From: an uncultured Clostridia bacterium | GTDB taxonomy: Bacteria > Bacillota > Clostridia > Christensenellales > CAG-917 | NCBI GenBank assembly: GCA_949283145.1 | Contig: CASDRL010000022.1 | Span: 1 to 62,543 of the forward strand | Reading direction: 5' to 3' | DNA: 62,543 nucleotides | Part shown: piece after piece, positions 1 to 9,278 of the stretch | Layout: the number at the start of each line of letters is the position of its first letter | How positions within the stretch are numbered: position 1 is the stretch's first letter | Notes under the pieces: model-generated | What the model saw: only the letters and a program-made list of their open reading frames with translations | Databases searched by the model: none | Told to the model about the DNA's origin: nothing | Position numbers and translations under genes: made by a program

Positions 1-399
1 AGCGCGGGAGCCTCGCCGAGAGTTTTTTGACGAGGTTAAAGCGAGCACGATTTGTGGGGGAAAGGAGCCGCAGGCTTTGATGCGGGCACCTTGCGCCCAT
101 GCAAGGTGTCGCGAACTTTGCCTTGCGGCGACGCAACGCAGGCAATAGTATACATATTGGCAAGTTTCGGCTGTGCAAAAGCGCCGAAAAGAATTGCTCC
201 GAGGCTGGTTCGTATTATTCCTGTCTGGCATGCAACATCTCGTGTTCGCCGGTTTTTTGGCGGATTGTTCGTTGCGGTTTTTTAATATCGCCTTTCAAAA
301 TGATTTTTTTCCGGCAACGGGATGCAAGGCATGTCCTGTTTTGGGTACGTGTGTTTGAGTAAATTTAAAGAAAAACTTGCAAAGGGACGAGTCGAGACC

Positions 400-3300
400 A
401 TGGAAACCATAAATGCGGAGCAGATCAAGGATATATTGCAGGCATATATCGAAGCGGAGGGACACGACGCACGCATTTACCGCGAAAAGAAGATAGGTCA
501 GGCGGTGTGCGATCTGATGGCAGTCACCGACATTCTCACCGGATATGAGATAAAGAGCGACCTCGACAATTTCTCAAGGCTTTCGTCTCAGATAAACGCG
601 TACGATATGTTTTTCAACAAAAATTATATCGTTGCGGGTGCGGGACACGCAAAAGCCGCCGCCGAAAAGGTGCCCGATCATTGGGGAGTGATCTGCATAG
701 ACAGCAATTCGGTCAGCTGTGTGCGCGAGGCACGCGTGAACAGAAACGCGAGGGCAGAGCAACAACTGTCCATGCTTTGGGAAGTGGAACTCAAAAATCT
801 GCTTATAAGGAACAATATGCCCGCATACGCCCTTAAAGGAAGGCAATTCATAATAGACAGGCTTGTGCGGTCGGTGTCTCAGCCCGCACTGTTTCGCCAA
901 ATCGCCGCAGAGCTGAAAACGCGCAACTACGCCCTTTTTTACGGGGATGATGACGGCGGAGGCGAAAATATCTTCGGGAGGGAACTGATAGACAGGCTGT
1001 CCGACGCGATAGGCGACAATTTCACCCTCGACAAATGGATAGAGCTGTTCGGCAGGGCAAAGAGCGTAAGCGAGCGCAAGCACGGTGCGGCTTTAAAGAT
1101 CGAAAAAAGCAGAAAGCCGCATACCATATCCTACAAGGACATAGAAGTGTCGCTGGGCGCGCCGTGGATAAGTGTGGATATAGTAAACGATTTCGTCTAC
1201 CACATCCTGAACTTCGATGACTCCGAAATTTATAGAAAACTCAGCAGTTGGTTGAAGTCGGACCCGTATATCGTAAGCTACGAGGAGGTGACGGGGTGTT
1301 GGCATCTGCGCGAAAAGGATTTTTTCGCATCGGGCAATCCAAACGCCGTTTTAAAGTACGGGACAAAGAGGTATAACGCCCTGCATATCATAGAGGCGAC
1401 TTTAAATCTGCGCGAGATCAGGCTGAAAGACGGCGACGGGAAATATGACGAAAGTGCCACGATCGCCGTGCTCGAAAAGCAGAGGCTCATCTGCGACGAG
1501 TTCAAAGCTTGGGTGTGGAAGGATGAGGACAGGATATGGGAGATAGAGGAGGCGTACAACACCATGTTCGACGGGATCGTCGTCCCGCGCTACGACGGCA
1601 GGGGACTTGCCTTCCCCGATATGTGCAAAGAAATAAAATTGTTTGATCACCAAAAGGACGCGGTGCAAAAGATAATTTCGTCGCCTAACACGCTGCTTGC
1701 CTTCGATGTGGGTGCCGGCAAGACATATATCATGATAGCCGCCGCCATGGAGATGAGGAGGCAGGGGATCTCGCGCAAGAATATGTTTGTCGTGCCCAAC
1801 AATATCGTCGGACAGTGGGCGTTGATGTTCACGACGTTATATCCGTCCGCCAAAGTCCTTGTCATAGAACCTAGGACGTTCAAAAAAGAAATGCGGCACA
1901 AAGTGCTCGAACAGGCGCAGAGCGGCGATTACGACGGCATAATAGTCGCGTACAGCTGCTTTGAGATGATAAATCTTTCGGGGGAGTATATAGCCGCGAG
2001 CCTTGATGAAAAAGTGTCCGTTCTGCGCGGTGCCATCCGCGGGCTTAGGGCTGACGGCAGGTACAGGTGGGGCAGCGTTCCGCTCGAACGCGAAATAAAA
2101 TACATAAATTCGATCATGGGCGAACTCATGGAGGGGGTAAATTCCGCCCTGGGTGAAATTACTTTTGAAAAGCTGGGGATAAATACGCTGTTTGTAGACG
2201 AGGCGCACAATTATAAAAATATACCCATAAGGACCGGTCTTAAAAACCTGCGCGGCATAAACGTGACGGGTTCTAAAAAGTGCCTGGATATGCTCGAAAA
2301 GGTAAAATGCATTCAAAAAGAAAACGGCGGCAGGGGTGTGGTCTTTGCAACGGGCACACCGCTTTGCAATTCCATATCCGACGTGTACGCCATGCAGATG
2401 TATCTTCAGCCAGAAGCCCTTGAAAAGCGCAGGCTGGACAGGTTCGACAATTGGGTAAAGACGTTTGCCCGCCCCGAACAGGTTTGCGAGATAGACGTGA
2501 ACGCCTCCGGCTACCGCTTCGTGCGCAGATTTTCCGAATTTTTCAACTTGCCGGAGCTGAGCAAACTGTTTGCGCAGGTCAGCGTGTTTTTTGCGGCGGA
2601 CGGCGGCGAGCTGCCCGAATTTTCGCAATATAACGACGTTGTGATAGAGCGCAGCGCAGAGCTTAAAGAATATATAGACGACCTCTGCCTCCGCACCGAA
2701 AATATAAGGGCTAAAAAAGTTCCCTCCACGCGGGATAACATGCTCAAGATCACTACGGACGGCAGGAAGGCGGCACTCGACCTCACTTTGGTTGGCAAGC
2801 AACAAAAATATGACGATACGAGCAAAATATTCAATTGTGTGGCTAATGTTCTGCGCATTTACAAGGAGAATGCGGGCTGTACGCAACTTGTGTTCTGCGA
2901 CTATTCAACGCCTAACGGTGCCGATTTCAGTGTGTATCGGGAACTTAAAAATGAGCTCGTTGCGGCAGGGATACCCGAAAAGGAGATAGCGTTTATCCAT
3001 TCGTATACAAGCGAAATATCCAGGCTGAAATTGTATGAGGATTTCAACATCGGAAAGGTGCGCATCATAATAGGCTCAACATTCAAACTCGGTCTGGGCG
3101 CAAACGTGCAAAGAAAGCTCAAAGCCGTTCACCACGTCGATGTTCCGTGGCGTCCTGCCGATATGATCCAGCGCGAGGGCAGGATACTTCGCCGCGGCAA
3201 CGAGAATAAAGAGGTGTTCATATACCGTTACATAATCAATGGCAGTTTCGACGCATATTCGTGGCAGATCCTCGAAACGAAACAGCGTTTCATTTCGCAG

Positions 3301-3990
3301 TTTTTAAGTGGCAGCAGTTACAGCCGCACGGCATCCGACCTTGAAAACAGTGTGCTCACTTATTCCGAAGTCAAGGCACTCGCAGTGTCCGACGCGAGGA
3401 TGAAGCTGCTTGTCGAAAAAGAAAGCGAGGTGCGCAATCTGCGCGTACTGTACATGCAGGAGCTTGAAGCAAGAGAGGAGGCTGCGCGCACCGTTTCGGC
3501 TCTCGAAGAGCGCGTTCCAGCATTGGAAGCCGAATATGATGCTACACTTAAAAACGCCGCATATGTTCTGTCGCTCACAAAAGAGTGCCTTGCCCGTGAA
3601 ATAAGATCGGCGTGCGAAAATATAGCTCGGTGCGACCTGCTCACGCCGCATGACGGTGCGCTTGGCGAAATATGCGGCTTTGCGGTCGACTTGCCCGACA
3701 AGCAGTCGAAAAAGAAGCCTTATCTGCTACTGTCCCGAAACGGAGCGAGTTATATGATGGAGGTGGGCAGGACGGTACAGGGCAATATGCGCAGATTTTC
3801 AAACTTTTTCGCTGCTTTCGGCAAGCAGGCGGATGCAAAGAGGCAGACGCTCGACGAAGAGAAGGCGCGCCTTACCGCTTTAAAACAGCAACTCGCTTCG
3901 CCGCTTGTCTATGACAAAAAACTTGCTGCGGCAAAGACGGAATATGACAGTCTGATCGAAGATATGCGCGAGAATATTTACGCACAGTAG
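400..3990 (+). CDS. sce7726-like PD-(D/E)XK nuclease domain fused to a DarB/COG4646-type SF2 (SNF2-related) helicase
   Basis: N-terminal CDL..GYEIKSDLDNFSRLSSQINAY..HWGV resembles the sce7726 family. Helicase motifs AFDVGAGKT (I), DEAH (II), ATGTP (III), PWRPADMIQREGRILRRGN (VI). ATG 400 preferred over 322. Confidence 0.75.
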   Translation: METINAEQIKDILQAYIEAEGHDARIYREKKIGQAVCDLMAVTDILTGYEIKSDLDNFSRLSSQINAYDMFFNKNYIVAGAGHAKAAAEKVPDHWGVICIDSNSVSCVREARVNRNARAEQQLSMLWEVELKNLLIRNNMPAYALKGRQFIIDRLVRSVSQPALFRQIAAELKTRNYALFYGDDDGGGENIFGRELIDRLSDAIGDNFTLDKWIELFGRAKSVSERKHGAALKIEKSRKPHTISYKDIEVSLGAPWISVDIVNDFVYHILNFDDSEIYRKLSSWLKSDPYIVSYEEVTGCWHLREKDFFASGNPNAVLKYGTKRYNALHIIEATLNLREIRLKDGDGKYDESATIAVLEKQRLICDEFKAWVWKDEDRIWEIEEAYNTMFDGIVVPRYDGRGLAFPDMCKEIKLFDHQKDAVQKIISSPNTLLAFDVGAGKTYIMIAAAMEMRRQGISRKNMFVVPNNIVGQWALMFTTLYPSAKVLVIEPRTFKKEMRHKVLEQAQSGDYDGIIVAYSCFEMINLSGEYIAASLDEKVSVLRGAIRGLRADGRYRWGSVPLEREIKYINSIMGELMEGVNSALGEITFEKLGINTLFVDEAHNYKNIPIRTGLKNLRGINVTGSKKCLDMLEKVKCIQKENGGRGVVFATGTPLCNSISDVYAMQMYLQPEALEKRRLDRFDNWVKTFARPEQVCEIDVNASGYRFVRRFSEFFNLPELSKLFAQVSVFFAADGGELPEFSQYNDVVIERSAELKEYIDDLCLRTENIRAKKVPSTRDNMLKITTDGRKAALDLTLVGKQQKYDDTSKIFNCVANVLRIYKENAGCTQLVFCDYSTPNGADFSVYRELKNELVAAGIPEKEIAFIHSYTSEISRLKLYEDFNIGKVRIIIGSTFKLGLGANVQRKLKAVHHVDVPWRPADMIQREGRILRRGNENKEVFIYRYIINGSFDAYSWQILETKQRFISQFLSGSSYSRTASDLENSVLTYSEVKALAVSDARMKLLVEKESEVRNLRVLYMQELEAREEAARTVSALEERVPALEAEYDATLKNAAYVLSLTKECLAREIRSACENIARCDLLTPHDGALGEICGFAVDLPDKQSKKKPYLLLSRNGASYMMEVGRTVQGNMRRFSNFFAAFGKQADAKRQTLDEEKARLTALKQQLASPLVYDKKLAAAKTEYDSLIEDMRENIYAQ

Positions 3991-4142
3991 ATCCGATGCA
4001 CCTAAAAACACACAAGCCGTTTGGTGTGATGACTGTATACGCCACGCAATGATGCCGCCGCCGGCAAATTTCTTGACAAAACAGTCTCGACATCTGCCGA
4101 AACAAAGCACCGCACCGCCGTATAATGCCCCCTTCCCGGAAC

Positions 4143-4172
4143 GGAAAGCCGCACTGTTTAGTGCGGTTTTCC
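4143..4172. terminator. Hairpin GGAAAGCCGCACT-gttt-AGTGCGGTTTTCC; a near copy lies at about 4763-4785
   Basis: Inverted repeat read directly; lies downstream of the helicase gene. Confidence 0.45.
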
Positions 4173-4614
4173 TGGCGGAGAAAGTGGAGCCTGAATCGAA
4201 CTTAAATGAGGAGTGAAATCGATTTAATGGCGGAAAATGATGGGACGGAGAAGACATTATAAGCGGCGGAGAGAAAAAAATTCGTCGTAAAAAGTGTTGG
4301 ATGTTGACATAAATTCGTTGTAATTTTTGTGTTCTTGTGGTCGGAGGTGGATGTTCGCCATAAGTGTAGGGCATTGAAAGGGTAATGTTTTGGTGAGCGT
4401 TGCATCACATCGCGGACGGCAGGAAAGGGCGAAGGCGTCTTGCGGTGCAAGCCGCCGAACCTGCGCGAATTGAGGAATTGCCCGAAAAGGTAAAATAATA
4501 TCGCAAACGATATATCACGCAATTAGTAGACATTTGCGCGCAATGTTCGCATGCCTTGACCTCCTCCCACCAAGCAAAAACCCAGCCAAACGGCTGGGCT
4601 ATTGCTTGGTGGGA

Positions 4615-4753
4615 GGAGGTGGATTCGAAAGGAGATAGGCGGGTGCTAACGCACCGCCTTCGACGGAATAGCCGTTTTGCCGTTATCTGATCTGCGTGCG
4701 GAGTTCACGCAGAACGGCAAACGGCGTCAGCGTCGGGTAAGAATCCACCTGCC
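4615..4753. mobile_element. Candidate MITE/REP-like unit with tRNA-derived inverted ends
   Basis: Ends GGAGGTGGATTC and GAATCCACCTGCC are near inverted repeats. Internal nested hairpin GCCGTTTTGCCGTT..TCTGCGTG..CACGCAGAACGGCAAACGGC. No ORF. Confidence 0.45.
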
Positions 4754-5015
4754 CAAAACAGAAAACCGCACTATTTAGTGCGGTTAGGAGGTGGATGTTC
4801 GCCATAAGTGCAGGGCATTGAAAAAGGGGAGGGCTTTGGCGGGCGTTGCGTCTCATTGCAGGTGGCAGGAAAGGGCGAAAGCGTCTTGCGGTGTAAGCCG
4901 CCGAACCTGCGCGCATTGTGGAATTGCCCGCAAAAATTAAACAATATGGCAAACGACGCATCACGCGATCGGCATAAATTTGCGCGCATGGTTCGTCCAC
5001 CGTCCCTTCCACAAA

Positions 5016-5052
5016 CAAAAACCTCAACCGAATGGTTCGATTGAGGTTTTTG
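5016..5052 (-). terminator. Rho-independent terminator-like hairpin after tRNA-Tyr
   Basis: CAAAAACCTCAA..TTGAGGTTTTTG inverted repeat immediately 3' of the last tRNA. Confidence 0.7.
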
Positions 5053-5053
5053 T

Positions 5054-5138
<85 letters not shown>

Positions 5139-5139
5139 A

Positions 5140-5215
5140 TGGAGCTGGTGAACGGAATCGAACCATCAACCTGCTGATTACAAATCAGCTGCTCTGCCTA
5201 TTGAGCTACACCAGC
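5140..5215 (-). tRNA. tRNA-Thr(TGT)
   Basis: GCTGGTGTAGCTCAATAGGCAGAGCAGCTGATTTGTAATCAGC..TTCGATTCC..CCA. Confidence 0.97.
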
Positions 5216-5272
5216 GTATTGAGGGTGCTCCGGCTTGAGCGGTGGGGCGCGGTTGCGGGCACCGGCTTTTTG

Positions 5273-5348
5273 TGGTGCCTCGGGGCGGACTTGAACCACC
5301 GACACAGGGATTTTCAGTCCCTTGCTCTACCAACTGAGCTACCGAGGC
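5273..5348 (-). tRNA. tRNA-Phe(GAA)
   Basis: GCCTCGGTAGCTCAGTTGGTAGAGCAAGGGACTGAAAATCCCT..GAGGCACCA. Confidence 0.97.
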
Positions 5349-5396
5349 ATACGGTCTAGGGAAGTGGCAGTGACGGTGTCACTGCCACTCGACCTT

Positions 5397-5473
5397 TGGC
5401 GATCCGGAAGGGACTCGAACCCTCGACCTCCAGCGTGACAGGCTGGCGTACTAACCAACTGTACTACCGGACC
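5397..5473 (-). tRNA. tRNA-Asp(GTC)
   Basis: GGTCCGGTAGTACAGTTGGTTAGTACGCCAGCCTGTCACGCTGG..GATCGCCA. Confidence 0.97.
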
Positions 5474-5480
5474 GTATATT

Positions 5481-5557
5481 TGGTGGGCCTTCACGGACTC
5501 GAACCGCGGACCAATCGGTTATGAGCCGACCGCTCTAACCAACTGAGCTAAAGGCCC
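5481..5557 (-). tRNA. tRNA with CAT anticodon, most likely tRNA-Ile2 (lysidine type)
   Basis: GGGCCTTTAGCTCAGTTGGTTAGAGCGGTCGGCTCATAACCGA..; acceptor and anticodon arms resemble Bacillota tRNA-Ile2 more than Met or fMet. Confidence 0.9.
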
Positions 5558-5588
5558 TCATCCGGGGATATCCCATCGTCACGAGTTT

Positions 5589-5665
5589 TGGTCGGGGTGA
5601 GAAGATTCGAACTTCCGACCCCATGGTCCCAAACCATGTGCGCTACCAAACTGCGCCACACCCCG
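5589..5665 (-). tRNA. tRNA-Pro(TGG)
   Basis: CGGGGTGTGGCGCAGTTTGGTAGCGCACATGGTTTGGGACCATG..CCCCGACCA. Confidence 0.97.
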
Positions 5666-5693
5666 TGAGCCGGGATCAATTCGTGACTATGAC

Positions 5694-5722
5694 AATATAC
5701 AATACGGGCGGAAGAATGTCAA
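5694..5722 (-). promoter_or_regulatory. sigmaA promoter of the tRNA operon
   Basis: TTGACA-17 nt-TATATT on the minus strand, about 30 nt upstream of tRNA-Pro. Confidence 0.75.
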
Positions 5723-5853
5723 CTTTTTTGAGAGGGATTTTGAGAGAATTTATTGACAAAATCAACGACGAACGGAAGCGCGGCGTCAAAACCTGTCAAA
5801 TCACTCGGGCGGAGATGATGTAGCATTGTCGGTGTACGGTCACGGAGGAATGT

Positions 5854-6162
5854 ATGAGCATTGAATGCAGACACGAACGCGGGCGTCTGACCGTCATTTT
5901 CAGCGGAGACATCGACGAATTTGCCTGTCGTACGCTGCGCGGAGAGCTGGACGGCGAGATAGGGCGCCAAGCGCGGGAAGAGGTGGTCTTCGACCTCGGG
6001 AACGTGTCCTTTGTGGACAGCACGGGGCTCGGGCTCATCCTCGGACGATACAAAAAGATAAGCGCGTCGGGCGGAGTGCTCCGTCTGAAAAACGTTCCGC
6101 CTCAGGTGGACAAGGTGCTGCGCATGAGCGGCGTATATTCCGTTGTGGAGAAGGTGAAATGA
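5854..6162 (+). CDS. spoIIAA: Anti-anti-sigma F (STAS domain)
   Basis: FVDSTGLGLILGRYK phosphoacceptor motif; GGAGG RBS; first gene of the spoIIA operon. Confidence 0.95.
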   Translation: MSIECRHERGRLTVIFSGDIDEFACRTLRGELDGEIGRQAREEVVFDLGNVSFVDSTGLGLILGRYKKISASGGVLRLKNVPPQVDKVLRMSGVYSVVEKVK

Positions 6163-6605
6163 TGACGGGCAACCATATGAAAATGCAGATCCCGGCATAC
6201 GGGAAAAACGAAAGTTTCGCGCGCAATGCGGTCGCGGGGTTCGCGGTGGAATGCGAGCCGACCGTGAGCGAACTCAGCGACATCAAAACGGCGGTGAGCG
6301 AGGCGGTGACGAACGCCGTCGTGCACGCCTACGACGAGGAGCGTGAGGAAAATCTCATCGAGATCTGCGCCGACATCGACGACGGCGGGATCCTTACGGT
6401 CAGCGTCAGGGACTTTGGACGAGGGATCGAGGACGTGCCGCGCGCGCTCGAACCCTTTTTCACCACCAAACCCGGCGAGGAGCGCAGCGGCATGGGGTTC
6501 ACCGTCATCGAGACGTTCATGGACGATATGAAGGTGGAGTCCGAGCCCGGGCGCGGCACTACCGTCGTTATGCGCAAAAGGATGGGCGGGAATGCTCGGT
6601 CATGA
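6159..6605 (+). CDS. spoIIAB: Anti-sigma F serine kinase
   Basis: NESFAR, SEAVTNAVVHAY, DFGRGI, ERSGMGFT. ATGA overlap with spoIIAA gives the start at 6159. Confidence 0.95.
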   Translation: MMTGNHMKMQIPAYGKNESFARNAVAGFAVECEPTVSELSDIKTAVSEAVTNAVVHAYDEEREENLIEICADIDDGGILTVSVRDFGRGIEDVPRALEPFFTTKPGEERSGMGFTVIETFMDDMKVESEPGRGTTVVMRKRMGGNARS

Positions 6606-7302
6606 AGAGACGCTGGAGCTGATCAAGCGCGCTCAGGACGGCGAAGAAGAGGCAAAGCAAACGCTGGTGGAGGAAAATCTGCCGCTCATCCGTTCCGTAG
6701 TCAAGCGCTTTAAGGGCAGGCTGGAATACGACGATCTGATGCAGCTCGGCGCAATGGGCTTTCTGAAAGCCGTTGCGGGCTTCGATCCCTCCTTCGGCGT
6801 GCGGTTTTCCACTTATGCCGTGCCCATGATCATGGGCGAGATAAAGCGATTTTTGCGGGATGACGGCGCGGTCAAAGTTTCCAGATGGGCGAAAGTGCTT
6901 GCGGGCAGGATCGCGGCATACACGGACGAAAGGCTGAAAAACAACCTTCCCGAGCCGACCGTCGAGGAGCTTGCCGAAAAATTCGGCTGTGATACGGGCG
7001 ACGTCGTGTTCGCATTGGACACGGGGCGGTTCGTCGTGTCGCTGAACGAGACGGGCGAGGAGGACGGCACGCCGCTCGGAGACAGGTTGGTTGGCGCCGA
7101 AGCGCCTGACGAAGATATTGACGGATTGATGTTGAGAGAGAACATCCGCGCTCTTCCCGAAAGGGAACGCAAGCTCATCATCCTGCGCTATTTCCGCGAC
7201 AAGACGCAGAGCGAAGTCGCGGCGGAACTCGGAGTGTCCCAAGTGCAGGTCAGCAGGCTGGAAAGCAAGATCCTTGCCAAAATACGCGAAAATATGGAGT
7301 GA
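6592..7302 (+). CDS. sigF: Sporulation sigma factor F
   Basis: FSTYAVPMIMGEIKRFLRDDG and TQSEVAAELGVSQVQVSRLE; position after spoIIAB. Confidence 0.93.
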   Translation: MLGHEETLELIKRAQDGEEEAKQTLVEENLPLIRSVVKRFKGRLEYDDLMQLGAMGFLKAVAGFDPSFGVRFSTYAVPMIMGEIKRFLRDDGAVKVSRWAKVLAGRIAAYTDERLKNNLPEPTVEELAEKFGCDTGDVVFALDTGRFVVSLNETGEEDGTPLGDRLVGAEAPDEDIDGLMLRENIRALPERERKLIILRYFRDKTQSEVAAELGVSQVQVSRLESKILAKIRENME

Positions 7303-7573
7303 CGCCGCCGCGCGGCGTCGTTTGACGCGGCGTTTTGCGGAACTCTTTTGATTTTTGTTAATTTTCATCGCAACGCCCCGCATATGTGCGGCGGTCTTGT
7401 TTGAAAGTGCGGTCGTCTCTGAGCGTGCGGGAGCAGGGGGAATATTATCGGCGATTATGTCCACACTTAGTTTGTGGACGTTTTTTTTACGGAAAACAGT
7501 GAGACGAGCGAGATCTTTTACGCCGCCGAAGCGCAGGAAGATCCCGCGCGCCCTGTAAAATGAGGGAAAAAGA

Positions 7574-8011
7574 ATGACGGATAAGGCGGAATACCGCGAG
7601 TATGTAAAAAAGAACGCGCCCGGCTCTCCCATGTGGCGCTCGCTCTTTGCCGCATTCGTTGTGGGCGGGCTCATATGCTGCGTGGGGGAAGGCGTGCATG
7701 ACGCGATAGAAACGCTTTTCCCCGGGCTTTCCGAGGACGCCGTCGGCAGCTGGACGACCGTAGTCATGATCTTTTTCGGCGCGTTTTTCACTGCTGTCGG
7801 ACTGTATGACCGGCTGGGACGCGTCGCGGGCGGCGGTTCCATCATCCCGATCACCGGATTTGCCAATTCCGTGGTATCGCCCGCGCTCGAATACAACCGC
7901 GAAGGCGTTTTTTTCGGAGTGTGCGCGAAAATGTTTGTCATTGCGGGTCCCATCATCGTTTTCGGAGTGGTGTCGGGCATCGTCGTAGGCGTGATAAGCC
8001 TGTTGGTGTGA
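7574..8011 (+). CDS. spoVAC: Stage V sporulation protein AC
   Basis: AFVVGGLIC, PITGFANSVVSPALEY, KMFVIAGPIIVFG. Confidence 0.92.
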   Translation: MTDKAEYREYVKKNAPGSPMWRSLFAAFVVGGLICCVGEGVHDAIETLFPGLSEDAVGSWTTVVMIFFGAFFTAVGLYDRLGRVAGGGSIIPITGFANSVVSPALEYNREGVFFGVCAKMFVIAGPIIVFGVVSGIVVGVISLLV

Positions 8012-8018
8012 GGTCGGG

Positions 8019-9278
8019 ATGAAGGCAGGCAGACAGAGTTTCAAGGCGGAAAAGCCGGTGTATGTGCGCTCGTCTTATACGATCGTCGGACCGAAAGAGG
8101 GGGACGGTGCGTTCGGTCGGATGTTCGATACGGTGCTCGGGGACGACCTTTGGGGAGAAAAGTCCTACGAAAAGGCGGAAAGCAAGATGCACCGCGAAGC
8201 AGTGCGGGGCGCCGTTTGTCTTGCGGGCGTCGGTCTTGAAGGGATAGATCTGATGCTTGCGGGCGACCTGCTGAATGAGATAAGCGCGTCAAGCCTTGCC
8301 ATGCGCTACTTCAAAGTGCCGTTTGCGGGGCTGTATAACGCTTGCTCGACGTTCAGCGAGGCGATTTTGCTCGGCAGCGCGCTCATCGAGGGCGGCGCAG
8401 TGCATACCGTTACATGTTCGACATCCAGTCACTTCGCTTCCGCAGAGAGACAATACCGCTATCCGTTGGAGCTCGGGAACCAACGCACGCCCACTTCGCA
8501 ATGGACGGTGACGGGGGCGGGCTGTACGGTGCTCGGTGACAGGCGTCCGACGGCGGAAGAAGACGAGAAGATGCGAGAGACTTTCGGTGAGCGGATGCGT
8601 GAAATGCGGGAAAGGTTCCTGCGAGACGCCGAAGGCGAGGACGGCGAATGCCGGAGACACGGCGGAAAAGGCGGCGACGGCGACGAAAATCCCTTCTCAA
8701 AAGACGGGATATTGGGAAAATTGAAGAAGAAACTGATCCTGCGCTGCCGTCCCGAGACGCTTGCGGAACCGATGGTGGACGCCTCTTATCGCCGCACGTA
8801 TATCGTAAAGATCACAGGAGGAACGTTCGGGAAAGTGGTGGACTTCGGCATCGACGACGAGAGCAACATGGGCGGCGCGATGGCGCCCGCTGCGGCAGAC
8901 ACGCTGCTTGCTCATTTTGAGGATACCGGCACATCGCCCTCCGACTACGACGCCATATTCACGGGAGACCTGGGCAGATTCGGAAAGGAAGCGTTTGAAT
9001 ATCTGTTGTCTAGGGAAGGAGTAGTGCTCGGAGAAAAACACCGAGACTGCGGTGCGGAATTCTATCTGCCGCGCCAAAAGACCTTTCAGGGCGGATCGGG
9101 AGCGGGGTGCGTGAATGTCGTGTTCAATGCCTACATCGCAAAAGCCCTCGAACGGGGAGAGTTTGGAAGGGTGCTCGTGCTGGCAACGGGGGCACTTCTC
9201 AACAAAGACACGCCGCTGCAAAAGGAGAACATCCCCGGTGTAAGCCACGCTTTCGTTGCCGAAAGTGAGCCTATGTGA
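8019..9278 (+). CDS. spoVAD: Stage V sporulation protein AD (dipicolinate binding) with an ~80-aa insertion
   Basis: GPKEGDG, GDLLN, SSHFASAERQYRYPLE, QWTVTGAG, NMGGAMAPAA, GGSGAGC. Confidence 0.92.
   Translation: MKAGRQSFKAEKPVYVRSSYTIVGPKEGDGAFGRMFDTVLGDDLWGEKSYEKAESKMHREAVRGAVCLAGVGLEGIDLMLAGDLLNEISASSLAMRYFKVPFAGLYNACSTFSEAILLGSALIEGGAVHTVTCSTSSHFASAERQYRYPLELGNQRTPTSQWTVTGAGCTVLGDRRPTAEEDEKMRETFGERMREMRERFLRDAEGEDGECRRHGGKGGDGDENPFSKDGILGKLKKKLILRCRPETLAEPMVDASYRRTYIVKITGGTFGKVVDFGIDDESNMGGAMAPAAADTLLAHFEDTGTSPSDYDAIFTGDLGRFGKEAFEYLLSREGVVLGEKHRDCGAEFYLPRQKTFQGGSGAGCVNVVFNAYIAKALERGEFGRVLVLATGALLNKDTPLQKENIPGVSHAFVAESEPM

Follow-up and report, generated by a model that had tools for sequence, protein, structure and literature searches.

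An sce7726-type nuclease head fused to a DarB-type SNF2 motor in Clostridia: a candidate single-gene defence system

In this work, we describe a gene of an uncultured Clostridia bacterium that encodes, in a single polypeptide of 1196 amino acids (aa), a nuclease domain of the sce7726 family followed by a DarB-type SNF2 motor. The gene lies at the left end of contig CASDRL010000022.1 (GenBank assembly GCA_949283145.1), of which positions 1 to 62,543, called the window below, were analysed. We propose that this fusion protein, the product of one gene acting alone, is a nuclease that moves along DNA at the expense of ATP and protects the cell against incoming DNA, and we put the probability of this reading at roughly one half. 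It is favoured by the head, which shares its family with the cII protein of a tested defence locus, by the preserved active sites and by the defence genes found among the neighbours. Both domains are known, and the databases have named the fusion automatically. An earlier note, made from the letters of the window alone, had seen in this gene an sce7726-like nuclease joined to a DarB-type helicase without its methylase and had regarded it as a candidate single-gene defence or anti-defence system; the domain assignments given there were borne out at every point, as detailed below.

Domain architecture of the fusion protein

The open reading frame (ORF) spans positions 322..3990 of the window on the plus strand, with the stop codon at 3988-3990, and translation from the ATG at 400 yields the 1196-aa protein. 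The choice of this start is supported by homologues of the same length (e.g., P0003), since they share the initial residues. The gene thus starts 400 nt into the window, and the DNA further left lies outside it. The coordinates of the domains are collected in Table 1.

The head of the protein is assigned by several comparisons. Residues 7-176 match the NCBIfam model sce7726_fam (NF033832) with an E value of 5.6e-37 and 127.4 bits (cut-off 70) over model positions 4-183 of 184, and the family motifs named in the earlier note are all present, namely D38, E50-I51-K52, R60-L61..Q64..A67-Y68 and W95-G96-V97. Among 121 aligned family members, D38 is kept in 119 and each of E50, K52, Q64 and Y68 in 120, the losses being gaps or single substitutions; E29 is also kept in 119-120 of the 121. 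D38, E50 and K52, together with Q64 and Y68, are the putative catalytic residues. An AlphaFold model of aa 1-232, built on 53 aligned translations from the window and the loci, reached a mean predicted local distance difference test score (pLDDT) of 81 and a predicted template modelling score (pTM) of 0.73, with aa 11-170 mostly at pLDDT 85-98. It comprises a core of beta-sheet and helices (aa 6-110), further helices up to aa 173 and a disordered stretch at aa 180-208; strands two and three carry D38 and E50-I51-K52, respectively. A Foldseek search of the PDB with this model returned 3dnx first (E 1.3e-5), followed by NucS/EndoMS, SfsA, XisH and Bax1, all of them restriction-endonuclease-fold proteins, and 2vld and 5gke matched the fold at E 4e-3 to 1e-2. 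We take 3dnx to be a member of the MmcB family. Among the predicted viral structures of BFVD, a protein of Lactobacillus phage 521B matched at E 5e-13 and several phage proteins annotated as MmcB-like DNA repair proteins at about 1e-6, while in PHROGs aa 2-142 fall into phrog_984 (E 3.2e-20), a family with unannotated function. A profile of the head run against the PDB sequences gave HmuY as its best match (E 0.25), which was rejected as being at chance level. Taken together, the modelled structure indicates that the head is a PD-(D/E)XK fold with an intact D..ExK site. The linker that follows is gapped and variable in the alignment of relatives, and its pLDDT falls below 50 at aa 180-208 in the domain model and at aa 176-237 in the model of the full-length protein.

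The remainder of the protein (aa 240-1193) has the sequence of a DarB-clade motor of the SWI2/SNF2 type, complete and with its ATPase motifs preserved. The Pfam families SNF2-rel_dom (aa 417-607, 41.2 bits, cut-off 24.9), ResIII (aa 412-496) and Helicase_C (aa 821-933, 43.9 bits, cut-off 23.5) were found above their cut-offs, and the family phrog_10089, annotated in PHROGs as 'DarB-like antirestriction', matched aa 240-1193 with an E value of 3.3e-199. The motifs include the Walker A residues G438, K441 and T442, DEAH at 600-603, TGT at 651-653 and motif VI (Q924-R925..G927-R928), and 120-121 of the 121 aligned sequences have the same residues at these sites. A tblastn search detected matches in 147 of 50,697 phage records and in 2091 of 72,556 plasmid records, the best of which run from aa 159-243 to aa 1017-1192 at 28-38% identity. 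Phage proteins annotated as DarB-like share 28-31% identity from aa 159/240 to aa 1096/1166; the annotation 'DarB-like antirestriction' is borne, among others, by proteins of Agrobacterium phage Atu_ph08, Sinorhizobium phage PBC5 and Burkholderia phages DC1 and BcepIL02. The DarB-like matches begin at aa 206-240 and the plasmid matches extend to aa 1176-1187, and none of the matches in these 147 phage or 2091 plasmid records extends over the nuclease domain. In two plasmids that were inspected, both mobilisable or conjugative, the relative of the motor (34-37% identity) makes up the C-terminal half of a longer protein, with a total length of 1972 or 2016 aa; in one of them, Listeria pLIS21, its gene lies a few genes past the MobP2 relaxase gene. 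Relatives also carry the precomputed Pfam families PF28554, named DUF8437 in the ESM Atlas, and Helicase_dom. By position, we infer that DUF8437 covers aa 240-410, a placement that the local Pfam copy did not report.

The AlphaFold model of the full-length protein is of moderate quality (pLDDT 72, pTM 0.49); it served to judge the fold of the motor and the secondary structure at the C-terminus, and the packing of the domains was not read from it. Its aa 897-997 have a pLDDT below 50, although this is the most conserved helicase stretch, and from aa 1001 onward the pLDDT is 73-89. Foldseek matched the full model to ISWI, Snf2 and SMARCAD1 at E values of about 1e-10, with ZorD (8qy7) at rank 19, and a full-length profile searched against the PDB sequences gave a single weak SNF2 match, 5hzr (E 3.8e-4). 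No methyltransferase family was detected in the fusion protein among Pfam or NCBIfam matches down to E<=1, and the position of the methylase before aa 240 is occupied by the sce7726 domain and the linker. A survey of the polyvalent proteins found in phages and conjugative elements describes the dyad of methylase and helicase, whose archetype is P1 DarB, as well as many other heads, and states that SNF2-type motors translocate on duplex DNA and do not unwind it (PMC5512222).

Relatives, neighbours and the case for defence

A word-indexed protein search produced 952 matches at E<=1e-3 among 7999 scored candidates. The 120 homologues listed among them are all 1128-1222 aa long, with 50-97% identity and 93-100% coverage; those that bear a name are called 'sce7726 family protein' and come from Clostridia or Oscillospiraceae assemblies. 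Scanning of genomes with an alignment of the 300 N-terminal residues matched at least 599 stretches; relatives were confirmed in at least 543, and 80 loci (numbered with L below) were kept. Nearly all of these derive from gut or rumen Clostridia, the exceptions being single assemblies labelled Gastranaerophilaceae, Bacteroidales and actinobacterium. The full-length fusion (>=1150 aa) is present at 44 of the 80 loci, about ten have a stand-alone sce7726 gene (~180 aa), and the others are broken or truncated by the end of a contig; shortened or split relatives include L023 (924 aa), L030 (908 aa), L047 (463 aa) and L024 (two ORFs). The fusion is thus clearly widespread, and the possibility raised in the earlier note that no other genome might have it falls away.

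A profile search over 1.84 billion representatives revealed 5298 proteins with an sce7726 domain at E<=1e-3. The best 150 of them are mostly 80-260 aa long, in agreement with the view that sce7726 is usually a small protein, and include one full-length fusion (P0129, 1197 aa). With only this one among the best 150, the fusion is a narrow branch, restricted to a lineage, of a large family whose members are small. None of the 462 candidates among longer proteins (2094-5000 aa) scored for the head, which is weak evidence. In the ESM Atlas, the family forms its own cluster under the name 'sce7726 family protein', and methylase-less (~980-1140 aa) and methylase-bearing motors occur there as well. 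Whether the family had already been described has a divided answer: the databases name and list its relatives, but no paper describing or testing the fusion turned up in a literature search that left out most subscription journals. Nor did this search give any mention of PF26915, PF28554, PF28555, DUF8437 or DUF8438, and the term 'DarB-like' occurs, judging by titles, mainly in phage-genome and virome studies. Six of the stand-alone genes (~180 aa; L066, L068, L073, L074, L075 and L078) belong to a Ruminococcus albus-type group with a conserved housekeeping context, a row of genes for an ABC ATPase, CbiQ, TruA, DUF5711, a CvpA-like protein and a ClpB/ClpC-like ATPase, unlike the variable settings of the fusion; in this group, sce7726 may serve the physiology of the cell and not a conflict.

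To characterize the neighbourhoods, 1035 ORFs from the 80 loci were clustered. The only common neighbour family is a regulator with WYL and WCX domains, found at 27 of the 80 loci; it is present at 17 of the 44 full-length loci, within 5 kb at 14 and adjacent at seven. WYL regulators co-localise with defence systems according to two papers (PMC9122601, PMC11662680). No other family is common across the 80 loci, hence no conserved protein partner is apparent, which fits the single-gene nature suggested in the earlier note. The expectation, also voiced there, that sce7726 genes stand next to sce7725/RES does not apply here, as no match to an sce7725 model was obtained at E<=1e-5 for the 68 non-redundant proteins encoded directly beside the 44 full-length fusions. 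The families that recur less often are BspA-type leucine-rich-repeat proteins (14 loci), NinI-like phosphoesterases (11), an unannotated 345-aa protein (10), a DnaB C-terminal-like ATPase (9) and PolC-like pieces (4 and 4), and further DUF2779, a SpoVK-like AAA ATPase with a further match to a phage clamp-loader family, a DEDDh exonuclease, an ADP-ribosylglycohydrolase, serine recombinases, PcfJ and FtsK. No virion gene was found among the recurrent clusters of the 80 loci.

A loose module can be discerned around some of the fusion genes. It consists of PolC-like pieces, the DnaB C-terminal-like ATPase, NinI-like phosphoesterases and the WYL regulator, whose genes often share a strand and lie close together, and occupies 6416-14741 in L006, 7681-13612 in L054 and 6977-13612 in L076; in L041 and L050 it lies just past the fusion gene. 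This module may be the replication set of undescribed integrated elements of gut Clostridia or part of a larger system. In L033, genes upstream of the fusion (2790-8679) encode a trypsin-like protease, a protein with forkhead-associated (FHA) and E2-like domains, a ThiF-type E1, a YukD ubiquitin-like protein and zinc-ribbon proteins, which looks like a ubiquitin-like conjugation defence cluster, and an SbcCD-like pair follows the fusion gene.

The mechanism that we propose for defence would run as follows. A PD-(D/E)XK nuclease and an ATP-driven translocase of double-stranded DNA would be united in one polypeptide; the motor, together with the DarB-type regions on either side (aa 240-410 and 986-1193), would load on foreign DNA and track along it, and the nuclease, in the place of the adenine methylase, would cut this DNA instead of marking it. 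The WYL repressor encoded near about one third of the relatives would probably hold expression low until DNA damage or infection. We can only guess at how self DNA might be spared; the protein may depend on free DNA ends or on another property of DNA that has just entered the cell. The logic would be like that of ZorD or HsdR, executed by one methylase-free chain. In its strictest form, the proposal is that the DarB-type motor, having evolved to travel on DNA during its entry into a cell, was re-armed in gut Clostridia with the cII/sce7726 nuclease and became a methylase-free, single-protein restriction machine, one that would destroy entering phage or plasmid DNA and distinguish it from the chromosome by its ends or entry state and not by a mark in the sequence. 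This form is more tentative, and we would not bet on it at even odds.

The neighbours examined with PADLOC lend support to the defence reading. A match other than WYL was obtained at E<=1e-8 in 12 of 17 loci and a specific match at E<=1e-30 in eight of the 17. The latter comprise ThsB and PDC-M50A (L001), a retron-type reverse transcriptase beside or near the fusion gene (L007 and L061), PDC-S02 (L026), two AbiE pairs (L038), PDC-S26 (L054 and L076), a fused PARIS AriAB (also L076) and GmrSD/HEC-06 (L037). The reverse transcriptases are RT_Ec107-like (E 1e-116 to 1e-127) and are encoded two ORFs upstream of the fusion gene in L007 (8021-9082) and directly downstream of it in L061 (14237-15160), the two loci being unrelated. 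According to Pfam, proteins with a Toll/interleukin-1 receptor (TIR) domain are encoded beside the fusion in L057 and L062, and AbiH in L001. As for the head, the gop-beta-cII locus of satellite P4 protects against lambda and P1, as reported by Rousset et al. (PMC9122126).

Several points weigh against the defence reading. The function is predicted, and the prediction rests on sequence, a structural model and genomic context. The nearest characterised kin of the motor are counter-defence proteins of phages and plasmids, and in PMC9122126 gop and beta are regarded as a likely toxin-antitoxin pair, with the role of cII left unassigned. The PADLOC input was selective: it comprised 146 of the 265 neighbours within ±7 genes, taken from 17 loci, housekeeping-looking proteins having been dropped beforehand, and three of the 20 Pfam-annotated loci (L004, L017 and L051), which have ordinary metabolic or housekeeping neighbours, were left out. 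In a control set of 103 ORFs (>=150 aa) from 57 kb of core genome in the window, PADLOC gave matches at E<=1e-8 in five and at E<=1e-30 in two. All five are generic: the two are a cysteine desulfurase (SspA/DndA) and a DEDDh exonuclease, and the others are ABC- or SMC-type ATPases and one partial match to MzaA. The signal from defence neighbours is real for specific genes, though it carries no formal statistics. Gene calling at the loci was crude, by greedy choice of the longest ORFs. Finally, recombinase, conjugation, ParB or replication-type genes occur within 10 kb of the fusion in 15 of the 44 loci; many copies therefore ride mobile elements, where a role in counter-defence or replication would also be natural.

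Among the alternatives, the one that survives best, while still unlikely in our estimate, is that the protein is a DarB-like counter-defence or establishment factor of a mobile element. Its target would be the DNA of the element itself during entry, host defence complexes or host DNA, and it would help the element to survive restriction; the nuclease would then replace the methylase as the active head. The assignment of aa 240-1193 to a 'DarB-like antirestriction' family agrees with this, as do the mobilisable or conjugative nature of the plasmids with the best relatives, the many heads known from polyvalent proteins and the mobile-element genes near the 15 loci just mentioned. However, the fusion was not found in any of the 50,697 phage or 72,556 plasmid records, and the conserved neighbours include neither conjugation nor virion genes. 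The one tested relative of the head belongs to a defence locus, and WYL repressors are typical of such loci. Moreover, several copies are single genes in a housekeeping environment: in L004, L051 and L062 the fusion gene stands alone among housekeeping genes, where a counter-defence gene would be of little use.

Somewhat less probable again is a role in replication, recombination or repair, in which the protein, MmcB- or NucS-like, would process the DNA intermediates of the integrated element that carries it. NucS/EndoMS and phage MmcB-like repair proteins are indeed among the structural neighbours of the head, and genes for PolC-like, DnaB C-terminal-like, DEDDh exonuclease, NinI-like and SpoVK-like AAA proteins are among its genomic ones. 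In L006, the order is PolC-like, DnaB C-terminal-like, fusion and WYL, on one strand with gaps of 15-71 nt, and in L054 and L076 the PolC-like gene ends at or just before the start of the fusion. But such replication-type neighbours are present in only 11 of the 44 full-length loci and their order varies, the same loci often hold defence genes, and motors of the SNF2 type translocate on duplex DNA without unwinding it. That the protein is a functionless, decaying remnant of a larger polyvalent protein is very improbable: some relatives are truncated or split, as listed above, but the 120 listed homologues keep within their narrow range of lengths, the catalytic and ATPase residues are nearly invariant, and the search of longer proteins yielded, for what this weak evidence is worth, no parent with this head.

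Setting of the gene in the window

Table 1. Coordinates of the fusion gene, its domains and the features next to it in the window.
Feature	Positions	Strand	Basis or remark
sce7726-nuclease/DarB-type SNF2 motor fusion gene	400..3990	+	ORF, translation, homologues
sce7726/cII-type PD-(D/E)XK nuclease domain (predicted), aa 1-180	400..939	+	NCBIfam, AlphaFold model, Foldseek, hhalign
Variable linker, low model confidence, aa 181-239	940..1116	+	pLDDT, gapped alignment
Pre-helicase region common to DarB-type proteins, aa 240-410	1117..1629	+	tblastn, PHROG matches
SWI2/SNF2-type two-lobe ATPase core, aa 411-985	1630..3354	+	Pfam, motifs, Foldseek
C-terminal long helix, small beta domain and helices, aa 986-1196	3355..3987	+	full model, PHROG, plasmid matches
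Tandem unit of ~446 bp, second copy	4343-4636		first copy 4787-5083
Exact 24-nt copy of the tRNA-Tyr 3' end	4606-4629		matches 5053-5076; repeat families D2, D4, D7
tRNA-Tyr (GTA), last of the six-tRNA cluster 5054-5665	5054-5138	-	ARAGORN, Rfam

The base composition sets the fusion gene apart from the rest of the window. Its GC content is 0.505 vs. 0.572 from position 5700 to the end, and its GC at third codon positions is 0.62 vs. 0.74-0.76 in pheS, pheT and mutS2, which confirms that the gene is less GC-rich than the housekeeping genes. The GC content stays at 0.50-0.51 from position 1 to about 5050, where the tRNA-Tyr gene marks the edge of the low-GC segment. The earlier note had placed the fusion gene just downstream of a tRNA. 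The tRNA-Tyr is indeed the nearest one, but the wording holds only loosely, as it lies 1064 nt beyond the stop codon. No convincing gene was found between the two, the ORFs there being short and overlapping. Past the tRNA cluster follow sporulation and housekeeping genes encoding SpoVAD, YunB, PheS/T, MutS2, ThiI and a penicillin-binding protein.

The 24-nt copy of the tRNA-Tyr 3' end looks like an attachment-site repeat. It is part of a tandem arrangement at 4128-5083, in which each copy of about 446 bp holds the tRNA-Tyr 3' end and a conserved block of some 210 nt with 81-97% identity between the copies; the repeats D1 (173 nt, 81% identity) and D6 (37 nt, 97%) connect the copies at a spacing of 444-447 nt. 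Each copy also contains, on the minus strand, a hairpin resembling a terminator (4785-4764 and 4166-4149), and near-perfect hairpins at 5005-5063 and 4559-4620, with arms of 28-29 nt that are 89-93% complementary, pair the tRNA-Tyr 3' end, or its copy, with the adjoining downstream sequence. The weak Rfam microRNA matches at 4559-4620 correspond to the near-perfect hairpin there. In window positions 1-6500, Rfam gave the six tRNAs and, below the gathering scores, only chance-level matches to microRNAs, Y RNA-like RNAs and plastid 3'-UTRs, with no meaningful match for the tandem unit at E<=0.1; a promoter and terminator scan of positions 1-5200 gave counts not above those of shuffled sequences, and only the locations of hairpins were taken from it. 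The tandem unit could represent end remnants of integrated elements or two copies of a small RNA co-transcribed with the tRNAs.

The tandem tRNA-end copies look like traces of repeated integration at the tRNA, and a horizontally acquired tRNA island is plausible; the left boundary of such an island, with a further repeat and any integrase, would be situated to the left of the window. The island on tRNA-Tyr that the earlier note had inferred thus agrees with the GC content and with the copy of the tRNA end, but the repeat pair does not bracket the gene: it encloses only ~420 bp between the gene and the tRNA, with the fusion gene outside. Adjacency to a tRNA was rejected as a trait of the family, since a tRNA was present in the fetched DNA of 2 of the 44 full-length loci. 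In one, L008, a tRNA-Asn (8931-9006, minus strand) lies ~620 nt past the fusion stop in a geometry like that of the window, with a divergent WYL gene 98 nt upstream; in the other, L026, a tRNA-Thr is located ~6 kb from the fusion gene.

Comparison with known systems

If the fusion is a defence gene, it represents a compact one-protein system from Clostridia of the gut and rumen, a group in which immune repertoires have been little studied, and the same type of motor would serve both attack and defence in the conflict of mobile elements with their hosts. Should the stricter proposal of a restriction machine be true, a new single-gene defence family would exist at hundreds of loci in genomes that represent species, providing a first mechanistic handle on the sce7726/cII domains. 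A counter-defence role would instead widen the known set of heads of DarB-type motors. Either way, the family is large and conserved and has so far been annotated only automatically.

The closest resemblance of the motor is to the DarB-type polyvalent proteins. Residues 240-1193 match phrog_10089 end to end, including the flanks of the ATPase, and share 28-37% identity over ~900-980 residues with phage and plasmid members of this module, the motor being of the SWI2/SNF2 type in both. In contrast to those proteins, the fusion has no adenine methylase or other polyvalent head and bears the nuclease in the methylase's place; it has 1196 aa vs. 1972-2016 aa in the inspected plasmid proteins, and it is itself absent from the phage and plasmid records searched. 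The lack of a methylase alone is not unique to the fusion, given the methylase-less DarB-type motors of ~980-1140 aa in the ESM Atlas.

Other motor-nuclease proteins share the principle and differ in the organization. In ZorD of Zorya, DrmD of DISARM and HsdR, an ATP-driven DNA motor is likewise joined to a nuclease of the restriction-endonuclease fold; PADLOC describes ZorD as 'SWI2/SNF2 helicase, Mrr-like nuclease', and in HsdR the nuclease is N-terminal and the motor follows. The fusion protein matches DrmD with 52 bits (cut-off 610) and ZorD with 24.5 bits (cut-off 1500), partially and over the ATPase lobes only. These proteins act with partner subunits, whereas the fusion has no conserved partner. 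Membership in DISARM, Zorya, Dpd or BREX (BrxH) was rejected, the matches being far under the cut-offs and confined to the ATPase lobes, with the partner genes not conserved. The MmcB-like/3DNX-type and NucS/EndoMS nucleases resemble aa 1-180 at the level of the fold, without a match at the level of sequence.

For the head, the most informative relative is cII of satellite P4 (264 aa; L083, NC_001609 1746-2540), which is named 'sce7726 family protein' in RefSeq. Both proteins belong to the same NCBIfam family (151 bits for cII vs. 127 for the fusion, cut-off 70), and hhalign aligned cII with the head at a probability of 96.8% over 140 columns, through the D and EIKSD..RL..Q motifs. The PADLOC model 'cll', which is presumably P4 cII, matches aa 38-173 at E 1.6e-15. 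P4 gop and beta could not serve as a screen of the neighbours by way of NCBIfam, as neither protein matches any of its models at E<=1e-5; no gop or beta gene is evident in the window, which ends 400 nt upstream of the fusion gene, and no direct comparison was made. P4, too, is integrated beside a tRNA. The cII protein is stand-alone, without a motor, beside gop and beta, whereas in the fusion the related domain is the head of a 1196-aa protein; if the latter is a defence gene, this would suggest that cII of gop-beta-cII is a nuclease.

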